Source of the DNA: an uncultured Verrucomicrobiae bacterium
Lineage (GTDB): Bacteria; Verrucomicrobiota; Verrucomicrobiia; Palsa-1439
Length of the DNA stretch: 64,000 bases
Direction: 5' to 3'
Assembly: GCA_963812605.1 (NCBI GenBank)
Contig: CAWEWF010000004.1
Coordinates: 288,001 to 352,000 of the forward strand
Within the stretch, counting starts at the first letter, position 1. Every line of letters begins with the position of its first letter. The notes beneath the pieces are model-generated. The model had not been told where the DNA came from. It did not search any database and saw nothing but the letters and a program-made list of their open reading frames with translations. The position numbers and the translations under genes were made by a program. Below, piece by piece: positions 10,151 to 43,900 of the stretch.

Positions 10151-11815
10151 ATGAAAAACAAATCCCCCATCCGTCACTTAGTGGCGCAAGCGCTTGCCTC
10201 GAATCCCTTTCGAGCGTCCCTGCTTGCGGTCCTGCTCTTGCTGGTGGCACAGGCCTCCGTGCCTGTGACCGCCCATGCCCAAGTACCGGGCATCATCAAC
10301 TACCAGGGCCGCATCGTGGATGCCGGCACCAACTTCGACGGCACTGGGCAATTCAAATTCGCCCTCGTCAACACTAGCGGCACCACCAATTATTGGAGCA
10401 ACGACGGCACCACCTTCGGCCCGCCGTCCGCCGCCGTCTCGCTCACCGTCACCAAGGGCCTCTACTCCGTCCTGCTCGGCGACACGACCATCGCCAACAT
10501 GAGTGTAGCGCTCTCACCGGCGGTATTCGCGAATTCCAACGTCCGCCTCCGCGTCTGGTTTTGGGACGGCAACGGAAGTCAGGTGTTCCAGCAACTCAGT
10601 CCCGATCAGCGCCTCGCGGCGGTCGGGTACGCCCTCACCGTCGCCAATGTCCAGGCTGCGGGCGACAATACGTTCGTCGGGCAAAGCGCCGGCAATGCGA
10701 CGATGAGCGGCGACAACAACACGGCCACCGGCTCCAGGGCGCTCTTGTCTAACACGAGCGGCAACAACAACACGGCTACCGGCGACGGGGCGCTCGTCTC
10801 CAACAGCAATGGCAACGAAAACACGGCCAATGGCGAGGCTTCGCTCGGTCACAATCTGAGCGGAAGTGGGAATACGACCATGGGGTTGGGGTCCCTTTAT
10901 GAGAACACTACCGGCAACCAAAACACTGCCATTGGTGAATATACGCTCGGCAACGCCACCGGCAACGGTAATACGGCGGTGGGAACGGAGGCCCTTTTTA
11001 CACTCACCACCGGCGACTACAATATCGCGCTGGGGTCCGGCGCCGGGGACAACCTGACGACGGGCGACAACAACATCGACATCGGCAACCAGGGGGTGGC
11101 GGGTGAAGCGGGTATCATCCGCATCGGCACGCCGGGCACGCACACCGCCACCTATCTGGCGGGGACGGTGAACGCCACGGCCTTCGTCGGCGACGGATCA
11201 GGATTGACCAATCTGCCGTCAAGTCAACTGCCGGCGGGTCTGGTCACCAACAACCAGACCGGGGTGACCTTGAGCGGCAGCTTCACCGGCACCTTCAATG
11301 GCAATGCCACCACGGCGACGAGCGCCAGTTCGGCGACGACCGCCGGCAGCGCGACCACCGCCAACAACTTCTCCGGCTCGCTGGGCGGGGACGTGACGGG
11401 CCTGCAGAACGCAACCGTCGTCGGCGCCGTCGGCGGCGTCACCGCAGCCAATGTGGCCTCCGGGGCGACCGCCGCCAACAATGCCACCTCCGCGAACACG
11501 GCCGGCGCTATCGTCAAACGCGACGGCAGCGGCAACATCACCGTCGCCACCGTCACCGGCAGTCTCAATGGCAATGCCGCCACCGCTACATCCGCCAGTT
11601 CGGCAACCACCGCGGCGAGTTTCACCGGGAGCGTTGCCGACAACCAGCTTTCGGCGAATGTGCCGTTGATTAACGGGAAGAATACGTTCAGCGGTTCCAC
11701 CAATACTTTCAACGGCGTGAGCAGCACGGCCGGCGGCCTGATCATCGAAACCCGCACTGGTACGGACCCATCCAGCCCGGCGATCGGGCAGATGTGGCTC
11801 CGAACCGATCTGTAG
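10151..11815 (+). CDS. Secreted fibre/adhesin-like protein with NTAxG repeats
   Basis: Signal peptide ending AHA-QVPGIINYQGR; about 14-aa N-T-A-x-G repeats; FVGDGSGLTNL and GNATTAT motifs typical of tail-fibre/trimeric adhesin shafts; C-terminal DPSSPAIGQMWLRTDL. Confidence 0.75.
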   Translation: MKNKSPIRHLVAQALASNPFRASLLAVLLLLVAQASVPVTAHAQVPGIINYQGRIVDAGTNFDGTGQFKFALVNTSGTTNYWSNDGTTFGPPSAAVSLTVTKGLYSVLLGDTTIANMSVALSPAVFANSNVRLRVWFWDGNGSQVFQQLSPDQRLAAVGYALTVANVQAAGDNTFVGQSAGNATMSGDNNTATGSRALLSNTSGNNNTATGDGALVSNSNGNENTANGEASLGHNLSGSGNTTMGLGSLYENTTGNQNTAIGEYTLGNATGNGNTAVGTEALFTLTTGDYNIALGSGAGDNLTTGDNNIDIGNQGVAGEAGIIRIGTPGTHTATYLAGTVNATAFVGDGSGLTNLPSSQLPAGLVTNNQTGVTLSGSFTGTFNGNATTATSASSATTAGSATTANNFSGSLGGDVTGLQNATVVGAVGGVTAANVASGATAANNATSANTAGAIVKRDGSGNITVATVTGSLNGNAATATSASSATTAASFTGSVADNQLSANVPLINGKNTFSGSTNTFNGVSSTAGGLIIETRTGTDPSSPAIGQMWLRTDL

Positions 11816-11827
11816 CCAAGGCGACGA

Positions 11828-17166
<5,339 letters not shown>

Positions 17167-17205
17167 TCAGGAGGGATATGAAAACAAGCGACATTTTTCT
17201 CTTTC

Positions 17206-17232
17206 TGTCATTCCGAGCTTGTCGAGGAATCT
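17206..17232 (+). repeat. TGTCATTCC-type palindromic repeat
   Basis: tgtcattccgagcttgtcgaggaatct with attcc/ggaat arms. Confidence 0.5.
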
Positions 17233-17257
17233 CAGTCGTGCCGGGAGGAATGAGAGG

Positions 17258-19488
17258 ATGAAAAGGGGTGCTTCTGTAGCGGCGCTCTATGAGCGCCGAG
17301 GGTTCACGCAATGGATACGGACGGCGGTCATAGACCGCCGCTTGTATCTTGCCCGATATGGTTCCTTATTGTAGCCCCGTAGGGGAACCGACCATGGTGG
17401 ACAAGCCGGGGAAAGGTGAATCTGTGACCGCCGCCAGGCCCACGAGCCTGAGCTGTAGATTCGATCCCTTTCCCCGTGGTCGGCTCAGGCCGAACGGTAT
17501 CGGAGGTCCTCCGAACGCCTTCGGAGTGAACCTGTATGCACAAGCCCGGCCACGCCAACCGATCCGTCCACCGCCCACACTCAACCATAAGGAGACTGCC
17601 ATGACAAGTTATCACCCACTGGGCCTGGACATCGCCAAACGCACCGTCGACGCGGCGTTGTTGCTAGACAAGGGCCGCTATCGCCATCATCAATTCACCA
17701 ATTCGCCGACCGGTTTCACCGCACTGGCCGCTTGGCTGCGCCGACATGCCACCGGCCCCGTTCACGCCGGCTTGGAAGCCACCGGCAGTTATGGCAACGC
17801 GCTGGCGCTATTCCTGCACCAGCAAGGCACGCCTGTGAGCGTCATCAACCCGACGCGGATCCATGCCTTTGCCCAGAGCGAATTGTCGCGTAATAAGACC
17901 GATCCCCTGGATGCCGCGCTCATCGCCCGCTTCGTGGCCACCCAGCAACCGCCACCGTGGACACCCCCACCGCTGGAACAACGCCAACTCCAAAGCCTGG
18001 TGCGTCGGATCGAGGCGCTCCAAGCCATGCGCCAGCAAGAACGCAACCGATTGGATCTGGAAGCCGACGACAGTCTGGTGGCCGATTCCTTGCGCCAGCA
18101 CCTGGCTTATCTGGACGCACAACTGCGCGGCCTCCAACAACGTCTGCGCCAACACCTCCGAGCGCATCCGCCGTTACAACACCAAAACGATCTGTTGCAG
18201 ACCATCCCGGGCATTGGGGAAACCACGGCGCTCAAACTGTTGGCCGAAATGCCCGGTCTGGCCCAGTGGTCCAGCGCCCGGCAAGTCGTGGCCTATGCGG
18301 GACTCAATCCGCAGCAGCGCACCTCGGGCAGTTCGGTGCGCGGGCGCAGCCATCTGAGCAAGATCGGCAATGCACGCCTGCGCCGTGCCCTCTACCTGCC
18401 GGCCGTGGTGGCGATGCGTTACAACCCACTGCTCAAAGCGTTTGCCCAGCGATTACGGGAACGCAACAAACCCCCGATGGTCATCGTCGGCGCCGTCATG
18501 CGCAAACTGTTGCACCAAGCCTATGGCGTCCTCAAACACGCCACCCCTTTCAATCCCAACCACGCAACGACCCATTGACAACCAAGACGGTATCTACAGC
18601 TTCTGCGTGATTGCGATCTTTGGGATCAGTATCCGCTGCTTATCCACCTTTGCCGCCAGCACCGTCACCACCAGCAGCCTTGACGGCGGCGGACTGCACG
18701 CGACCAGCGCTAATTACTCGATGGATAGTAGCGTCGGCGACATCGGCGGGATTTCCAGCGGCGGGAACATCTCGACCCTGCCCGGCTCCGTCGGTCAACT
18801 CACCGAGATCGTCAGTATCAGCGTCACCAGCACACCCTGGCATCGTCAACGAAGACGCGACCAGCCAGCTCAGCGCTACCGCCTCCTTCGATGACAACAG
18901 CGTGTCCATCCTCTCGGGCAGCGACGTTGCATGGGCCAGCGCGGTCTACCCACTGGCCTCGATCGACAGCAACGGCTTGGCAACGGCGGCGTCCGTGTAT
19001 GCCACGACCAATGGCGTATTCAGCGGTTTCTACCTGGGCCTCTCCAGCACCGGCCTCGTGGCCGTGATCGACAGCAATCCCGACAACTACGGCAGCTACG
19101 CCGGCGATGGCATACCGGACAGTTGGCAGGTGCAATATTTCGGCACGAACAATCCCAAAGCCGCGCCGGGCATTGACGCGGATGGCACCGGAAACAGAAC
19201 AATCTCTTCAAGTACACCGCCGGCCTCGACCCAACTAACCCCACCTCAATCTTCGTATTGAAAATCGCCAGCGTCACCGGCCAGCCGACGCAGAAGAACC
19301 TGATCTTCAACCCCATCGCCGGCGGACGGACGTATATCATCGAAGCCAGAACGAATCTGCTCAGCGGCAGTTACGCCGCGCTCGCCAGCGCCAGCGGTCC
19401 GGTCACCAACGTCAACCAGGTCACCGTAACCGATCTAAGCGCCACGCAGACCTCGAAGTTCTACCGCGTCCACGTTTCGCTGCCGTAA
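17258..19488 (+). CDS. Secreted protein with Ig-like region, DGIPDSWQ/DADG calcium-binding-type motifs and C-terminal ...KFYRVHVSLP; interrupted by IS110 no. 2 after codon 28 (probable sequencing frameshifts near 18840 and 19195)
   Basis: ATG 17258 joins 18596 in frame once the IS is removed: MKRGASVAALYERRGFTQWIRTAVIDRRY-SFCVIAIFGISIRCLSTFAAST; downstream fragments 18611-19261 and 19258-19488 continue the protein. Confidence 0.7.
17274..17342. repeat. GTAG-type REP doublet, one member split by IS110 no. 2
   Basis: ctgtagcggcgctctatgagcgccg ... cggcggtcatagaccgccgct|acag. Confidence 0.85.
17357..17560 (+). ncRNA. Putative bridge RNA of IS110 no. 2
   Basis: GACCGCCGC (17426-17434) equals left target; AGCTGTAG (17451-17458) is the reverse complement of core plus right target; ACGGTATC (17494-17501) equals left donor; ACAAG (17540-17544) is complementary to CTTGT; guides lie in internal loops closed by ggggaaagg/cctttcccc, caggc/gcctg and cgtggtcgg/ccggccacg stems. 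Boundaries approximate. Confidence 0.88.
17601..18578 (+). CDS. IS110-family recombinase/transposase (intact, 325 aa)
   Basis: LGLDIAK, LEATGSY, KTDPLDA, TIPGIG, QRTSGSS, SKIGNARLR, AVMRKL; SD aaggag before ATG 17601. Confidence 0.96.
   Translation: MTSYHPLGLDIAKRTVDAALLLDKGRYRHHQFTNSPTGFTALAAWLRRHATGPVHAGLEATGSYGNALALFLHQQGTPVSVINPTRIHAFAQSELSRNKTDPLDAALIARFVATQQPPPWTPPPLEQRQLQSLVRRIEALQAMRQQERNRLDLEADDSLVADSLRQHLAYLDAQLRGLQQRLRQHLRAHPPLQHQNDLLQTIPGIGETTALKLLAEMPGLAQWSSARQVVAYAGLNPQQRTSGSSVRGRSHLSKIGNARLRRALYLPAVVAMRYNPLLKAFAQRLRERNKPPMVIVGAVMRKLLHQAYGVLKHATPFNPNHATTH
18575..18595 (+). promoter_or_regulatory. -35 half of the circle-junction promoter of IS110 no. 2
   Basis: TTGACA (18575-18580) lies exactly 17 nt before TATCTT (17345-17350) once the ends are joined through one CT. 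Confidence 0.75.
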
Positions 19489-19693
19489 CGCGAGCGTCCC
19501 GCTTGCGGTGCCCCGCCATTGTTGTGTGCTGTTGGGTATCACGCCTTTTACCGCGGCGCGATACCGTCGTCAAAACATCCCCAGCGCTCCCCGCAGCCTT
19601 GCGCAAAACCTTTTTGACATTGCTGCGGGCTGCTGACACACTTTGGGGCCCCGATCAGGTCAAGGGATTGATTGTAAGGCTCGTGCCACGCTC

Positions 19694-37960: not shown

Positions 37961-40900
37961 TTATTGCTTCACGTGGAAATCGCCCGTTGACTGATCGGGC
38001 GCCGTCGCGATTTTCCAGTTTAACCGCGGGCTCTTCACCGACACCGTGCCTTTGCAGGCTTCCTGAACGACAACACCAAACTTTTGCCCATTGTTGTTTG
38101 TCGTCGGAACGCTGCCGATTTTGACGGAGCCAACTTCTGTGGCGGTGATTATACTAGCAGTAAATGTTCGCACGGTCACATTTTTAATCGCTCCACTGAC
38201 GGCGAGCGCGCTATTGGCCAGAGCGTTGATATTGATCGTGCCCAAACTGCCTCCCAACTGAATGCCCGCACCGGTCACATTGACAACCTTGCCGTTGATC
38301 GATTTAAGACCGCCGCTCCCCACGATGCTGCCGATATTCACCAATCCATCGCTGCTGCGTGAGCCGCGTTTTACCTGAATCGTGAGGCTGGTGGTGGCGT
38401 CGGTGTTCGTCAGCACGATGGAATCAATCGGGCCGGCGTCCGTGCCCCCGAGCAAGTGCACCTCCATGGTGCCGGCCCCCTTCAGCGTTACCGACACTCG
38501 ATTGGTGCTATTTCCCTCCACGTCGGCGATCGCCTGGGGGTTGGAGGCAACGGAAAAGGGCGGCGGAACGGGAACGACGATACTGGCCGCGATGGCGCTG
38601 TTGTTTCCAGCCTTTGGATCGGTTTCATTGGCGCTGACGGTCGTCGTGGCGCTGACCAAACCCAGCGTCGTGTTGGTTACGGTGTAGCTAGCGAAAGGCC
38701 GGCATCGGCGGCCAGACTGCCCACATTACAGACCAGCGTGCCTCCAACCATGACACACCCCGCCGAAGCCGAGACGAGACCCGCGCCCACAGGCAATGAA
38801 TTGCTGATTGTCACTCCGGTGGCGGAGACGGCCCGAGATTCGTCACGGTAATGCTGCACGTCAGATTGCTATCCACAATCACAGGGCTCGGGCTGAAGGA
38901 ACTGGAAACCGTGAGGTCGGCAATGCTGGTAACGCTGATCGTGCAATCGTTCTGACCGACATTGCCGCCGTGGTCGGTTGCCGTAACCGTGAAGCTGAAT
39001 GTCCCGGCCGCAGTGGGGACGCCGGTAAGTGTCCCCGCGCCCAACAAAGTCAAACTCACGGGTAACGAACCCGCCGAGTTCGTAAAGCTCTAAGGCGCCG
39101 TGCCGCCACTCGCGGTGATGACGCCATCGTAACTCCGACCCACCGCGGCGGCGGGGAGGTTTGACGGGCTCACCGTGATCGTAGGCGGCGGCGGGAACGG
39201 ATCGGCAAGGGTCAGCGTATAGATCTTGGTTGCCGTGCAGTTGTTCGAGTCGGTGGCCATCACAGTAAATGAGCTGCTCGACGAAGTCGGCGTCCCAGAA
39301 AGCACGCCATTACTGGAGATGGTCATGCCCGCCGGCAAGGCTCCCACCGTCTGGCTGAACGTGTATGGAGGTGTGCCTCCGGACGCGGTAAATGTCTGTG
39401 GATTGTACGCGACAAATTCCGTACCCATTGGCAGCGAATTCGGCAAAAGATTGATCGTCGGGCAACTCACAAGGACCGTGTACACCTTTTCGGCGGTGCA
39501 GCCGTTTGCATCCGTGAATCCCACTTCGAAACTGAACTGTCCAACCGTGGTGGGCGTCCCGGAAATCACGCCATTCGCGGACAGCAACAGACCCGGCGGC
39601 AGCGGTCCAATGGCCAGGAAGAACGTCAAGGGTGGCTGTCCGCCGATGGAGGTAAACGCGTTGCTGTAAACCTGACCGAGAAGAAGAGCATTCGTTATCG
39701 CGGCGGGCGCAAGCCCCAAGGTCGGACAGCTGTTGATGACAATGGTATACGCACCGCTCCCGGTGCAGCCGAATGCATCCGTAAATCCGACCACGAAATT
39801 GAATTGTCCAAGCGTTGTGGGCGTGCCGGAAACCACACCGTTGGTGCCCAGCACCAGTCCCGGCGGCAAGGAGCGGGTTTTCAAGGAGAACGTCACGGGT
39901 GGTTGTCCGCTACCGACGGTAAACGCGTTGCTGTAAATCTGACCAAGCGAGCCATTCGGCAATGCTGCGGGACTAAGCGTCAATGATGGACAACTGATTT
40001 GAAGGGTATACGGGTTGGTCCCGATGCATCCGAGCGCATCCGTGGCGGCGACTGTGAAGGTGAACACGCCGGTCGCAGTCGGCGTTCCCGAAAGGATCCC
40101 ATCCGATTGCAAAGCGAGGCCCGGCGGCAACGAACCGACCGTGTTGGTGAAGCTGTAGGGCGCGGTACCTCCAGAAGCCGTCAAAAGCTGGCTGTAGGGA
40201 AGAGCCACAGGCCCCACGGGCAGTATGCCCGGGTAATCGTGATGGGCGGACACGTAACCGTGATGGAGGCCGACAGCGTAGAGGCACAGTTATTGGAGGC
40301 CACCGCCTCCACCTGGAAGTTGAAAACTCCCAGGACCAGCGGGGTGCCGGAAACCACGCCGTTGGTGGCCAGCACCAGTCCCGGCGGGAAAGTACCGGCT
40401 ATCAAGGAGAACGTCACGGGTGGTTGTCCACCGCTGGCGGTATACGTGTTGTTGTAAACCTGACCGAGAAAAGCATTCGTCATCACGGCAGGCGCCAGCC
40501 CCAAGGACGGACAGTTGTTGACGACAATGCTATAGGTGTTGCTCCCCGTGCAGCCGAGCGAATCCGTGGCGGCGACCGTGAAGGTAAACACGCCGGTCGC
40601 GGTCGGCGTTCCCGAAAGGATCCCGCCCGATTGCAAGGTCAGGCCCGGCGGCAACGAACCGCCAGTCTTGGCAAAGCTGTAGGGCGCGGTGCCTCCCGAA
40701 GCCGTCAAGAGCTGCGGGTTGTAAGCCGCCGTCACGTGCCCCTGGGGCAGCGTGCCCGGAGTAATCGTGATGGGCGGACACGTAACCGTGATTGTGGCCG
40801 ACAGCGTGTCGACACAGTTATTGGAGGCCACCGCCTGCACCTGGAAGTTGAAAACCCCCGGGACCAGCGGCGTGCCGGAAACCGCGCCGTTGGTGGCCAG

Positions 40901-43900
40901 CACCAGTCCCGGCGGGAAGGAACCGGTTAGCAAGGAAACGTCACGGATGGTTGTCCGCCGACGGCGGTGAACGCGTTGTTGTAAACCTGACCGAGAAAAA
41001 CATTCGTCATGGCGGCAGGCCCAAGCCCCAAGGACGGACAAGTGCTGATGACAACGGTATAGGTGTTGCTCCCGTTGCAGCCGAGCGAATCCGTGGCGGT
41101 GACCGTGAAGGTAAACACGCCGGTCGTGGTCGGCGTTCCCGAAAGGATCCCACCGGATTGCAATGTCAGGCCCGGCGGCAACGAACCGGCCGAGTTGGTG
41201 AAGCTGTAGGGCGCGGTGCCTCCAGAAGCCGCCAAGAACTGCTGGTTGTAGGCCGCCGTCACGTGCCCCTGGGGCAGCGTGCCCGGAGTAATCGTGATCG
41301 GCGGACACGTAACCGTGATTGTCGCCGACAGCGTATCGGCACAATTATTGGAAGCCACCGCCTGCACCTGGAAGTTGAAAACCCCGGGGACCAGCGGCGT
41401 GCCGGAAACCACGCCGTTGGTGGCCAGCACCAGTCCCGGCGGGAAGGAACCGGCTTTCAAGGAGAACGCCACCAGTGGTGCCCGCCGCCGGCGGTATACG
41501 CGTTGCTGTAAACCTGACCGAGAAAAGCATTCGTCATCACGGCTGGGCCCAGCCCCAGGGACGGACAGTTGTTGACGACAATGATATACGTGTTGCTCCC
41601 GGCGCAGCCGAGCGAATCCGTGGCGGTGACCGTGAAGGTGAACACGTTGGTCACGGTCGGCGTCCCCGAAAGCACCCCATCCGGTTGCAAGGTCAGGCCC
41701 GGCGGCAAGGAACCGGCAGTTTTGGCAAAGCTGTAAGGCGCGGTGCCTCCAGAAGCCGTCAAGAGCTGCGGGTTGTAAGCCACAGACAGGTGCCCCTCGG
41801 GCAGTATGCCCGGAGAAACCGCGATGGGCGGACACGTAACCGTGATTGCGGCCGACAGCGTATCGGCACAGCTATTGGAGTCCACCGCCTGTACCTGGAA
41901 GTTGAAGACCCCCAGGACTGTCGGCGTGCCGGAAACCAAGCCATTGGTGGCCAGCACCAGTCCCGTCGGCAAGGAACGGTTTTCAAGGAGAACGTGATGG
42001 GTGGTTGTCCGCCGGCGGTAAACGCGTTGCTGTAGACCTGACCGACAAAACCGTTCGTCATCACGGCGGGCGCCAGCCCAAAGGACGGACAATGGTCGAT
42101 GACAATCGTATAGGCGTTGCTCGCGGCGCAGCCGAGCGCATCCGTGGCGGTGACCGTGAAGGTGAACGCGCCGGTCGTGGTCGGCGTTCCCAAAATCCTC
42201 CCGTCCGATTGGAAGGTCAGGCCCGGCGGCAACGAACCGGCGGGGTTGCTAAAGCTGAAGGGGCTGGCCCCGTCGATGACGGAGAACTGCGCGGTATACT
42301 CGATATTGGAATAACCGGGCGGAAGTTCCGCGGGAGACAGCGTGAGCGCGCAAGCCCTGGCGACGTTCAACACGAGATGCCCCCCGGCCCATTGTCCAGC
42401 GGCTCCGCAACAATGTAGTAATCATTCGAGCCGTCCGCAGTAAACGTTACATGCGAGTTCAATCCTTCCGTATTGGAGACGAGTTCCACCAGCGCGCCGC
42501 ATTCTCCGCGAACGAACACGGTCTGCGGGATAGCCTGGACCGTCCAGACGGACAGGAGCGTATTAAAATCACTGCCGATCGTGTCGATGGTGAATGCCGT
42601 TCCGGCCGTGGGCAGGACAATCTTGAAGAATTCATCGATACCGCCGAGCCCCGCGCTCGGGCTTGGCTGGACATTCCCGTCGAAGCCGGCGGATTTGGCG
42701 AGAGGATGTTTGAGAAGGTCGTCGGGAAGCTGGTGAGGTTGATCGCCGTCTGGCAGGAGTTGTTCGTCTTCAAATTGGGCACGTCGGACAGGGTATTCGT
42801 CGCTGCATTGTAAACGACGAGCGCGAAGTCCTGATCGTTGCCGCTACCCACGTTCGGAACGCCATCGCCGGCGATATTGGCGGCGCGCACGATGACTTGC
42901 CACGGGGCACCGGAAGTCACCGCGGCAATGCCGCCCAGCGAACCGATCGGGTTCAAGAACACACTCTGCATGTTGTTGACGGAGTCAAACGCGCCACCCG
43001 GCACCGACACGTTCTCGGCAAACACGTTGCCCTTGTACGTGACCCCGCCAATAATCACCTGTAAATCCAGGTTATTCACCAATTCTTGCGCGGCGCCCGG
43101 CGCCCCTGGGGCATCGGTCCAAGCCAACGTCACACGGAACGGCAAGCCGTTGCTGGCGATCTGGCCTGACAATTCGTAGCTCTGACCTGACTGGCTGAAG
43201 TAGGTCTGCTGCGGCTGCCGGATTCGTTGTGATCAGGGGTGAGTCAATCGCCCGCGGTGACGATTCGTCACGGATCGCCCGCCCCGCGCCATCGAACATA
43301 CGCGCCAAATCCAGTTCGCCCATGCCCTGGGCATTTGATGGCAATGTGTCCATGGCATGCGTCTGGGGATTGGTCAATGGCAGATAACGGGCCGAATTGC
43401 ACAGATAGGCTTTGGCCATCGCTGGGCTGGGCTGCAACAATGCCTGGCCCAGTTCATTGGTGAGACGATTCTGGAAATACCACCACAGGAGTTGAATGGC
43501 TCCGGAAACCACAGGCGCGGCATAGCTGCTGCCCGAATTGCATTGATACAGGCCGCCAGGGGGGACATACCTCGCGATCTCGTTGGAACAAGCAGTAAAG
43601 GGGGGACAATCAAAAAGATTCGTAATAGCACAAATGGTATTGTCGTCGTTGCCAAGATTCCCACACTCATCGCGGTTGACAAGGGGAGTGATCAGGCCCG
43701 AGGCATCGATCCCGAGCGCCAGTTCGGACGATGCGCCATAAATTGTGGTGCCGGGCGCCACAATCTCGGGCTTGAATCGCCCGTCGAGGGTCGGACCGAA
43801 CGCCGTGAACGGTGGGAGCATTAGTGAATTGTCCTGCTGGTTTTCCGGCGCGCAGCCACTGCCGTCCAGTCGCACGCTGTCGGATGAGCCGACCGTGATG

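Follow-up and report, generated by a model that had tools for sequence, protein, structure and literature searches.

Two IS110-family insertion sequences in palindromic, probably translated repeats of consecutive surface-protein genes in a soil verrucomicrobium

A row of three co-oriented genes at positions 10151-19488 of a 64,000-nucleotide (nt) stretch from an uncultured Verrucomicrobiae bacterium (the window; G000:C4:288001-352000) is interrupted by two different insertion sequences (IS) of the IS110 family, termed IS#1 and IS#2, each of which stands in a palindromic repeat close to the start of a gene. With moderate confidence, we interpret both as ordinary repeat-targeted IS110 insertions at an unusual, probably translated place, and not as a dedicated switch. 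The genome (G000) comprises 4.17 Mb on 15 contigs and is 90% complete; coordinates are window positions (1-64,000) unless prefixed with G000. Only four public runs contain parts of the stretch, all of them soil metagenomes from one study (X1-X4), and the short-read evidence consists of Logan contigs with a depth of 2-7, at which rare alleles and variants are invisible.

By analogy with IS621, RNA-guided site-specific recombination would have put each element into its own repeat, which resembles the repetitive extragenic palindromic (REP) sequences of other bacteria. One guide would spell the 3' arm of the repeat hairpin and the CT core, a second guide would be antisense to the CT core and the right flank, and a third segment would repeat the right terminus of the element. 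Since the guides spell the element's own repeat, each element seems to be addressed to its own repeat family. In two consecutive genes of an operon that encodes three surface proteins, the repeats would lie between the start codon and the signal-peptide hydrophobic core, and insertion would part the start codon and the ribosome-binding site from the body of the gene (Table 1). Indeed, gene 2 is left without a canonical start, and gene 3 retains only a poor GTG at 18607. Both genes are presumably silent at present; the insertions appear to be recent and lineage-specific, as would follow from the repeat preference of the elements, and their reversal is probably rare. The locus would thereby offer a clean natural example of bridge-RNA addressing with two elements side by side, one of which has a sister copy with guide and target changed together. 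Translated repeats would open coding sequence to elements whose usual targets are intergenic. If excision were frequent, this would amount to a simple, programmable surface variation in an abundant, little-studied soil phylum; if it were not, the locus would be a record of repeats and IS elements eroding and rebuilding surface-protein operons.

Table 1. Features of the interrupted gene row in window coordinates.
Feature	Position	Strand	Remarks
Gene 1	10151..11815	+	open reading frame (ORF) for a secreted repeat protein of 554 amino acids (aa) that has a signal peptide and repeats of GNxNTA type; opens the operon
Leader severed by IS#1	11828..11880	+	ATG 11828, 12 nt past the gene 1 stop, and 17 codons
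REP1 left arm	11860..11880		terminates in GGAG; unoccupied REP1 sites have the same arm (..gtgtcctaat.ttGGAG) before GGCCACG
IS#1	11881..13084	-	IS110-family, 1204 nt; right end 11881-11891, transposase 11892-12832
IS#1 left end	12833..13084	-	bridge-RNA-like region (guide-like segments, fold, shuffle test)
REP1 hairpin and inverted partner unit	13085..13170		GGCCACG-loop-CGTGGCC, 7-bp hairpin
Gene 2 body	13085..17166	+	signal-peptide core, seven RCC1 repeats (Pfam), beta-helix-like region of 844 aa
REP3	17204..17241		third palindromic repeat, gtcattccgagcttgtcgaggaatc type, in the spacer between genes 2 and 3
Leader severed by IS#2	17243..17342	+	Shine-Dalgarno (SD) sequence GGGAGGA 17243-17249, ATG 17258 and 28 codons
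REP2 doublet	17274..17342		two inverted hairpin units; the final ACAG lies beyond IS#2 (18596-18599)
IS#2	17343..18595	+	IS110-family, 1253 nt; intact transposase 17601-18578, right end 18579-18595
IS#2 left end	17343..17600	+	bridge-RNA-like region (guide-like segments, covariation, fold)
Gene 3 body	18596..19488	+	remaining signal peptide, then a secreted protein of ~300 aa

The two elements, their guides and their target repeats

An earlier reading made from the sequence only (the sequence-only reading) had placed two IS110 elements within the limits given in Table 1 and had held that they differ in transposase, guide, target and orientation, and both statements were borne out. The limits of IS#1 were set by alignment with three full and one truncated further copies in the genome (96-100% identity) and are supported by 12 unoccupied REP1 sites that read GGAG and GGCCACG on the two sides of the insertion point, while those of IS#2 were set by its sole further genome copy, on contig C8 (87% identity), and by the REP2 sites. 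Both elements match PF01548 and PF02371 of Pfam, IS#2 with E-values of 1.2e-28 and 1.2e-27 and IS#1 with 3.7e-20 and 1.2e-15 on two fragments, as well as the NCBIfam model NF033542 "IS110 family RNA-guided transposase" (254 and 204 bits, cut-off 140). The matches in the PDB are solely to the transposases of IS621 (8wt6) and ISCro4 (9t56), with E-values of 1e-70 for IS#2 and 4e-40 for IS#1. The alignment of IS#2 with ISCro4 conserves the columns LGLDIAK with IGIDVSK, LEATGSY with MEATSTY, KTDPLDA with KTDAVDA and SGSSV with SGSSV, which we take to hold the catalytic D, E, D, D and serine. The two transposases are 37% identical to each other, the elements are oppositely oriented, and, among 17 other genomes of the genus, the nearest transposase to that of IS#2 shares 70% identity with it. 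For IS#1 and IS#2, respectively, the left ends comprise 252 and 258 nt and the right ends 11 and 17 nt; the termini (CTTGTATC.. and ..ACAGTTG / ..ACGGTATCT) are not inverted repeats, and a CT flanks each element on both sides. Judged by these features, both are IS110-family elements, unrelated to each other and relatives of IS621.

The transposase of the window copy of IS#1 is split, since one G is missing after 12482 in comparison with all four other copies, and the three other full copies encode an intact transposase. The G is present in short-read contigs of two runs, which may derive from other copies of the element. The truncated copy (G000:C4:364703-365510), 64 kb further downstream than the one in the window, retains the left end and the first ~470 nt of the transposase gene and adjoins an inverted REP1 unit.

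Three guide-like segments can be recognised in each left end. In IS#1, nucleotides 12967-12976 have the same sense as the left target followed by CT and C (a 10-nt match; CGTGGCCCTC), nucleotides 12939-12944 (TTGGAG, 6 nt) are antisense to the CT and the right target, and nucleotides 12896-12903 (ACAGTTGC, 8 nt) are identical to the terminus of the right end. The counterparts in IS#2 are located at 17426-17434 (same sense as the left target and C, 9-nt match, GACCGCCGC), 17451-17458 (antisense to the CT and the right target, 8 nt, AGCTGTAG) and 17494-17501 (identical to the right-end terminus, 8 nt, ACGGTATC). Among 5000 mononucleotide shuffles of each left end, the same-sense match was attained by 29 for IS#1 and 104 for IS#2, and both guide matches together by 22 and 8, respectively. 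The strongest evidence for the guides is the natural covariation of guide and target between IS#2 and its C8 copy: the left flank of the C8 copy reads ..GAAGCGCGG (also written ..AAGCGCGG) before the CT, as opposed to ..AGACCGCCG in the window, and the two left ends are near-identical, differing in precisely the guide block (GTAAGCGCGGCC vs GTGACCGCCGCC). Furthermore, the window site ACAGCT is the best fit to the right guide of IS#2 among the REP2 sites listed, and both left ends fold into structures that are stabler than those of shuffled sequences (z of -2.62 for IS#2 and -3.06 for IS#1). The layout of the segments is the one given for IS621 bridge RNAs in passages of PMC11208160, and by this analogy the left ends probably encode a bridge-type RNA; a search of 11000-19600 against Rfam, with E-values of up to 1, returned no match and no curated bridge-RNA family. 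The repeat hairpins at 13085-13104 and 17322-17342, each together with the CTTGTATCT of the respective element, score as terminator-like, and the number of terminator-like structures in the whole region is not above that of shuffles.

Both insertion points have the CT core directly 3' of a GC-rich hairpin, and the hairpins belong to two repeat families. REP1 (GGAG followed by GGCCACGCTCCGTCGTGGCC, in most cases paired with an inverted unit) occurs at 16 places in the genome when up to three mismatches are allowed, 12 with GGAG before the hairpin and four with the left end of IS#1 at this place. REP2 (..GGCGGTCATAGACCGCCGCT followed by ACAG, often as a doublet) has 15 genome matches at five mismatches or fewer, 13 of which continue with ACA, one with IS#2 and one with TCAG. 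All four full copies of IS#1 and the truncated copy are located at REP1 units, and the window copy is the only one of the four full copies with a long ORF through the join, which argues that the repeat and not the gene determines the landing site. The repeats are short imperfect palindromes with GC-rich stems of 7-9 bp, often arranged as inverted doublets and mostly extragenic; their copy numbers (16 and 15) are low for REPs. None of the four matches to PF01797 above the cut-off has a REP1 or REP2 unit (four mismatches or fewer) within 900 nt, and because no gene for a REP-associated tyrosine transposase (RAYT, a Y1 transposase) lies near them, the repeats are called REP-like here. REP3 has matches in all 18 genomes of the genus, with 12 in G000.

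According to PMC11208160, IS110 elements insert into REPs, and the natural targets of IS621 are REP hairpins, as is likewise the case here. Shared with IS621 and ISCro4 are a two-domain transposase with DEDD and serine residues, a long left and a short right end, the CT core, the lack of terminal inverted repeats, and a left end with segments that resemble guides for target and donor. By contrast, the elements of the window are only ~40-45% identical to them, reside in a soil verrucomicrobium, and have targets in probable signal-peptide leaders as opposed to between genes. Similarly, ISPpu9 and ISPpu10 of Pseudomonas putida are described as having copies confined to one REP-type sequence, with a GC-rich stem-loop immediately 5' of the site of insertion (for ISPpu10, a preprint); both sites in the window are alike in this, whereas the targets of ISPpu9 and ISPpu10 are described as intergenic.

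In two of the runs (X1 and X2), short-read contigs that join at 18598/18599 carry the right end of IS#2 at 100% identity and continue into two other flanks, which share ACA(G) after the core. Both flanks were searched in G000, with no match for either, so that IS#2 is inserted at further places, either in the community or in the tenth of the genome that is missing from the assembly.

Position of the repeats relative to the start codons

According to the sequence-only reading, deletion of either element joins ATG 11828 or ATG 17258 in frame to the downstream gene, and this was reproduced exactly: in silico, each deletion connects the ATG to the signal-peptide core (upon removal of IS#2, MKRGASVAALYERRGFTQWIRTAVIDRR runs into YSFCV...), and across each join only the gene's own frame is open, the other two frames having stops. 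Such frame continuity is weak evidence on its own, since it is expected by chance in about one of three cases per site. More telling are the start codons that would be left if the repeats were not translated. In gene 2, neither ATG nor GTG nor TTG occurs in the interval from the repeat to the hydrophobic core, and 13147-13340 is reproduced identically in a short-read contig. For gene 3, ATG 17258 is preceded at nine bases by GGGAGGA, a strong SD sequence, and 17214-17342 is matched without differences by a short-read contig, whereas GTG 18607 has no SD sequence and would yield a leader without a charged n-region.

Two further cases speak for translation of such repeats. In G000:C14:51217-52453 (minus strand; the same gene as L015:972-2207), the reading frame of a GT4 glycosyltransferase continues through a REP2 doublet (..ASVAAVYDRRSSNSQDPAALIERRYS..), which occupies the linker between the two domains, the Pfam matches ending at residue 204 and resuming at residue 233. 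In a relative (G016), the gene-3 ortholog has a start context, gacacggagg..ATG, in common with the orthologs of G015 and G017, followed by a repeat of 33 nt, with five other copies in the G016 genome, and then by the signal peptide; several orthologs from metagenomes have long leaders as well. We infer that the repeats of the window probably lie in translated leaders. The proposal of the sequence-only reading that REPs serve as coding landing pads thus holds in so far as the repeats form real families and are probably translated. A precedent for translated repeats is given by the Rickettsia palindromic elements (RPEs) and other intragenic MITEs of bacteria, small palindromic repeats which, according to PMC10969869, reside in frame in protein-coding genes without destroying them. 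The REP2 doublet in the GT4 linker and the repeats in the two signal-peptide leaders resemble them in this, but are shorter (units of ~25 nt or doublets of ~70-105 nt vs ~150 bp), have a low copy number, and are also targets of IS110 elements. Among the titles listed in searches of the literature, none describes IS110 elements inserted into translated signal-peptide repeats. As a further observation, the GT4 doublet constitutes an unoccupied, near-perfect target of IS#2.

Conversely, the repeats could be non-coding intergenic sequences and the upstream ATGs due to chance, in which case gene 3 would start at GTG 18607 and gene 2 at a non-canonical codon after AAGGGAG (13181-13187), and the elements would exert polar or read-out effects on transcription at most. 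Several observations weigh against translation and are compatible with this alternative. Most REP1 and REP2 copies lie outside convincing genes, an open frame per join is expected at the chance level given above, and the signal peptides of gene-3 orthologs are mostly short and ordinary. The leader starting at ATG 11828 is unlike the starts of the gene-2 orthologs, with 943-1706 of 2000 shuffles scoring equally, and the comparison of the ATG 17258 leader with 12 gene-3 ortholog starts is not significant (best 179 of 2000 shuffles). Moreover, the SD-like AAGGGAG is located just before the hydrophobic core of gene 2, and the frame continuity depends on ~115 nt of the gene-2 leader and 57 nt of the gene-3 leader that lack confirmation by short-read contigs in an assembly with 1-bp errors. 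Nevertheless, we consider non-coding repeats unlikely, in view of the contig-confirmed lack of an ATG, GTG or TTG between AAGGGAG and the hydrophobic core, the properties of GTG 18607, the strong SD sequence at ATG 17258, and the REP2 doublet that is demonstrably in frame in the two-domain enzyme.

Reversible switching and misassembly as rival explanations

The sequence-only reading had gone further and proposed two reversible switches. In this proposal each element would act as an off-switch by precise excision and guided re-insertion, the repeats would be translated parts of the leaders and at the same time addresses for two bridge-RNA recombinases, and gene 2, encoding the RCC1 adhesin, and gene 3, encoding the next secreted protein, would be switched independently, resulting in four states. 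The precedent is IS492 in eps of Pseudoalteromonas atlantica, for which both states and high-frequency excision have reportedly been demonstrated by experiment. As in that system, an IS110-family element sits in a gene for a surface structure, and its precise removal would restore the gene; the difference is that only the occupied state is seen here.

Some of the data are in line with such a mechanism. Deletion of the elements in silico restores an open frame from the ATG to the signal peptide, the guides match exactly these sites, the three intact IS#1 transposases could act in trans, and passages of PMC11208160 state that IS110 elements excise scarlessly. Furthermore, the genes are not dead, as two of their frameshifts, at 14630 and 18838, are artefacts. 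The extra base at 14630, where the RCC1 part of gene 2 passes into the tail, and that at 18838, at the first break of gene 3, are absent from short-read contigs in single-copy sequence, and dropping them restores the frames expected from the orthologs. Gene 2 is a single gene of ~1377 aa after removal of the indel at 14630, and the body of gene 3 appears in three frames owing to 1-bp indels at 18838 and near 19195, the latter of which is left uncovered by the short-read contigs. The indels at 12482 and 12859 are contradicted by contigs that possibly stem from other IS copies. Two of the three downstream frameshifts are thus assembly errors, which calls for caution with apparent pseudogenes, and, leaving the insertions aside, the genes are probably intact.

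Other findings speak against the switches. Neither the empty-site joints (11880>13085 and 17342>18596) nor the circle junctions were found in the four runs, which at the depth of the contigs is a weak test. Two other candidate joints, 13087>17207 and 13145>17274, were rejected as repeat artefacts, their sides measuring 27 and 22 letters at repeat-rich spots. No IS-free allele of the same species was found among the genomes and metagenomes scanned: the relatives are other species, with at best 72% identity for gene 2 and 76% for gene 3, and scans of metagenomes and of a genome collection yielded 15 loci at 66% identity or less and 10 loci at 61% or less, respectively. There is no IS110 element near the orthologs in 62 loci of relatives, and the other IS#1 copies lie in repeats outside gene leaders. 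In addition, two preprints report that IS621 and CazIS110-1 copy out while the donor is kept in place, and the premise of clean excision is thereby contested. Taken together, there is no positive evidence for two switches with four states, and we regard this explanation as quite improbable.

The preferred reading, ordinary repeat-targeted insertion, has difficulties of its own at this point. Two different elements in consecutive genes, 4.3 kb apart, are unusual for random sites; IS#1 has five copies in 4.17 Mb, so that ~1% of all positions are no more than 5 kb away from a copy (a post-hoc estimate), and on this estimate pure chance accounts for the adjacency less well than a selected switch or a hot spot would. 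Gene 3 could be translated from GTG 18607 on a read-out transcript of the co-oriented IS#2 transposase. The sequence-only reading had also named three outcomes that would speak against switching, namely a lack of empty-site or circle reads at good depth, start codons of relatives downstream of the repeats, and real downstream frameshifts; none of these refuted the switch, and the third was contradicted by the short-read contigs.

That a long-read metagenome assembler misplaced multi-copy elements at repeats is very improbable, although the assembly has 1-bp errors, the short-read contigs break at the ends of IS#1 and those with the right end of IS#2 run into two flanks not in G000, since an X1 contig of 1984 nt leads from the unique left flank (17214) through all of IS#2 and agrees with the assembly at every letter, core and flanks at both junctions are arranged exactly as in the other copies, and contig breaks are expected at multi-copy repeats.

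Origin of gene 2 and further observations in the window

Homologs of gene 1 are present in 20 of 41 genomes of relatives (G000 included), usually with a gene-3 homolog following them. Four pairs were inspected at base level; in all of them gene 1 and gene 3 are neighbours, with gaps of 10, 53, 288 and 10 nt between stop and start, and further pairs lie within ~3 kb on the same contig, as judged by coordinates only (loci L035-L061 of the relatives). In the genomes with such a pair, the RCC1 gene is located elsewhere, indicating that gene 2 is a lineage-specific insert.

The first 33 nt from ATG 11828 agree at 20 positions with the beginning of the gene-3 ortholog in G017, a score that none of 2000 shuffles equalled, and that is equalled by 6 of 5357 ORF starts in G000 and by 4 of 785 that begin with ATGAA. 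With 12 orthologs tried, the likeness of ATG 11828 to a gene-3 start is suggestive at most. Moreover, the 11 leader codons before REP1 and the 22 codons after the IS#2 site add up to the 33-residue signal peptide of G017. It is possible that the signal sequence of gene 3 was split by the arrival of the RCC1 gene together with its borders, REP1 at one end and REP3, ATG 17258 and REP2 at the other. As an addition to the improbable switch model, the RCC1 gene would have borrowed the start codon of gene 3 in this way, and the repeats would be seams of gene cassettes as well as landing pads of switches, which fits the data.

No Pfam or NCBIfam family was matched by gene 1. Elsewhere in the window, overlapping ORFs on the minus strand at 39090-42373 all match He_PIG Ig-like repeats (Pfam), and they probably represent one giant surface-protein gene split by the same kind of assembly indel. 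In a Pfam survey of the whole window, covering 10 overlapping ORFs, this putative He_PIG giant gene looks split, and a ketoacyl synthase and a reductase look intact.

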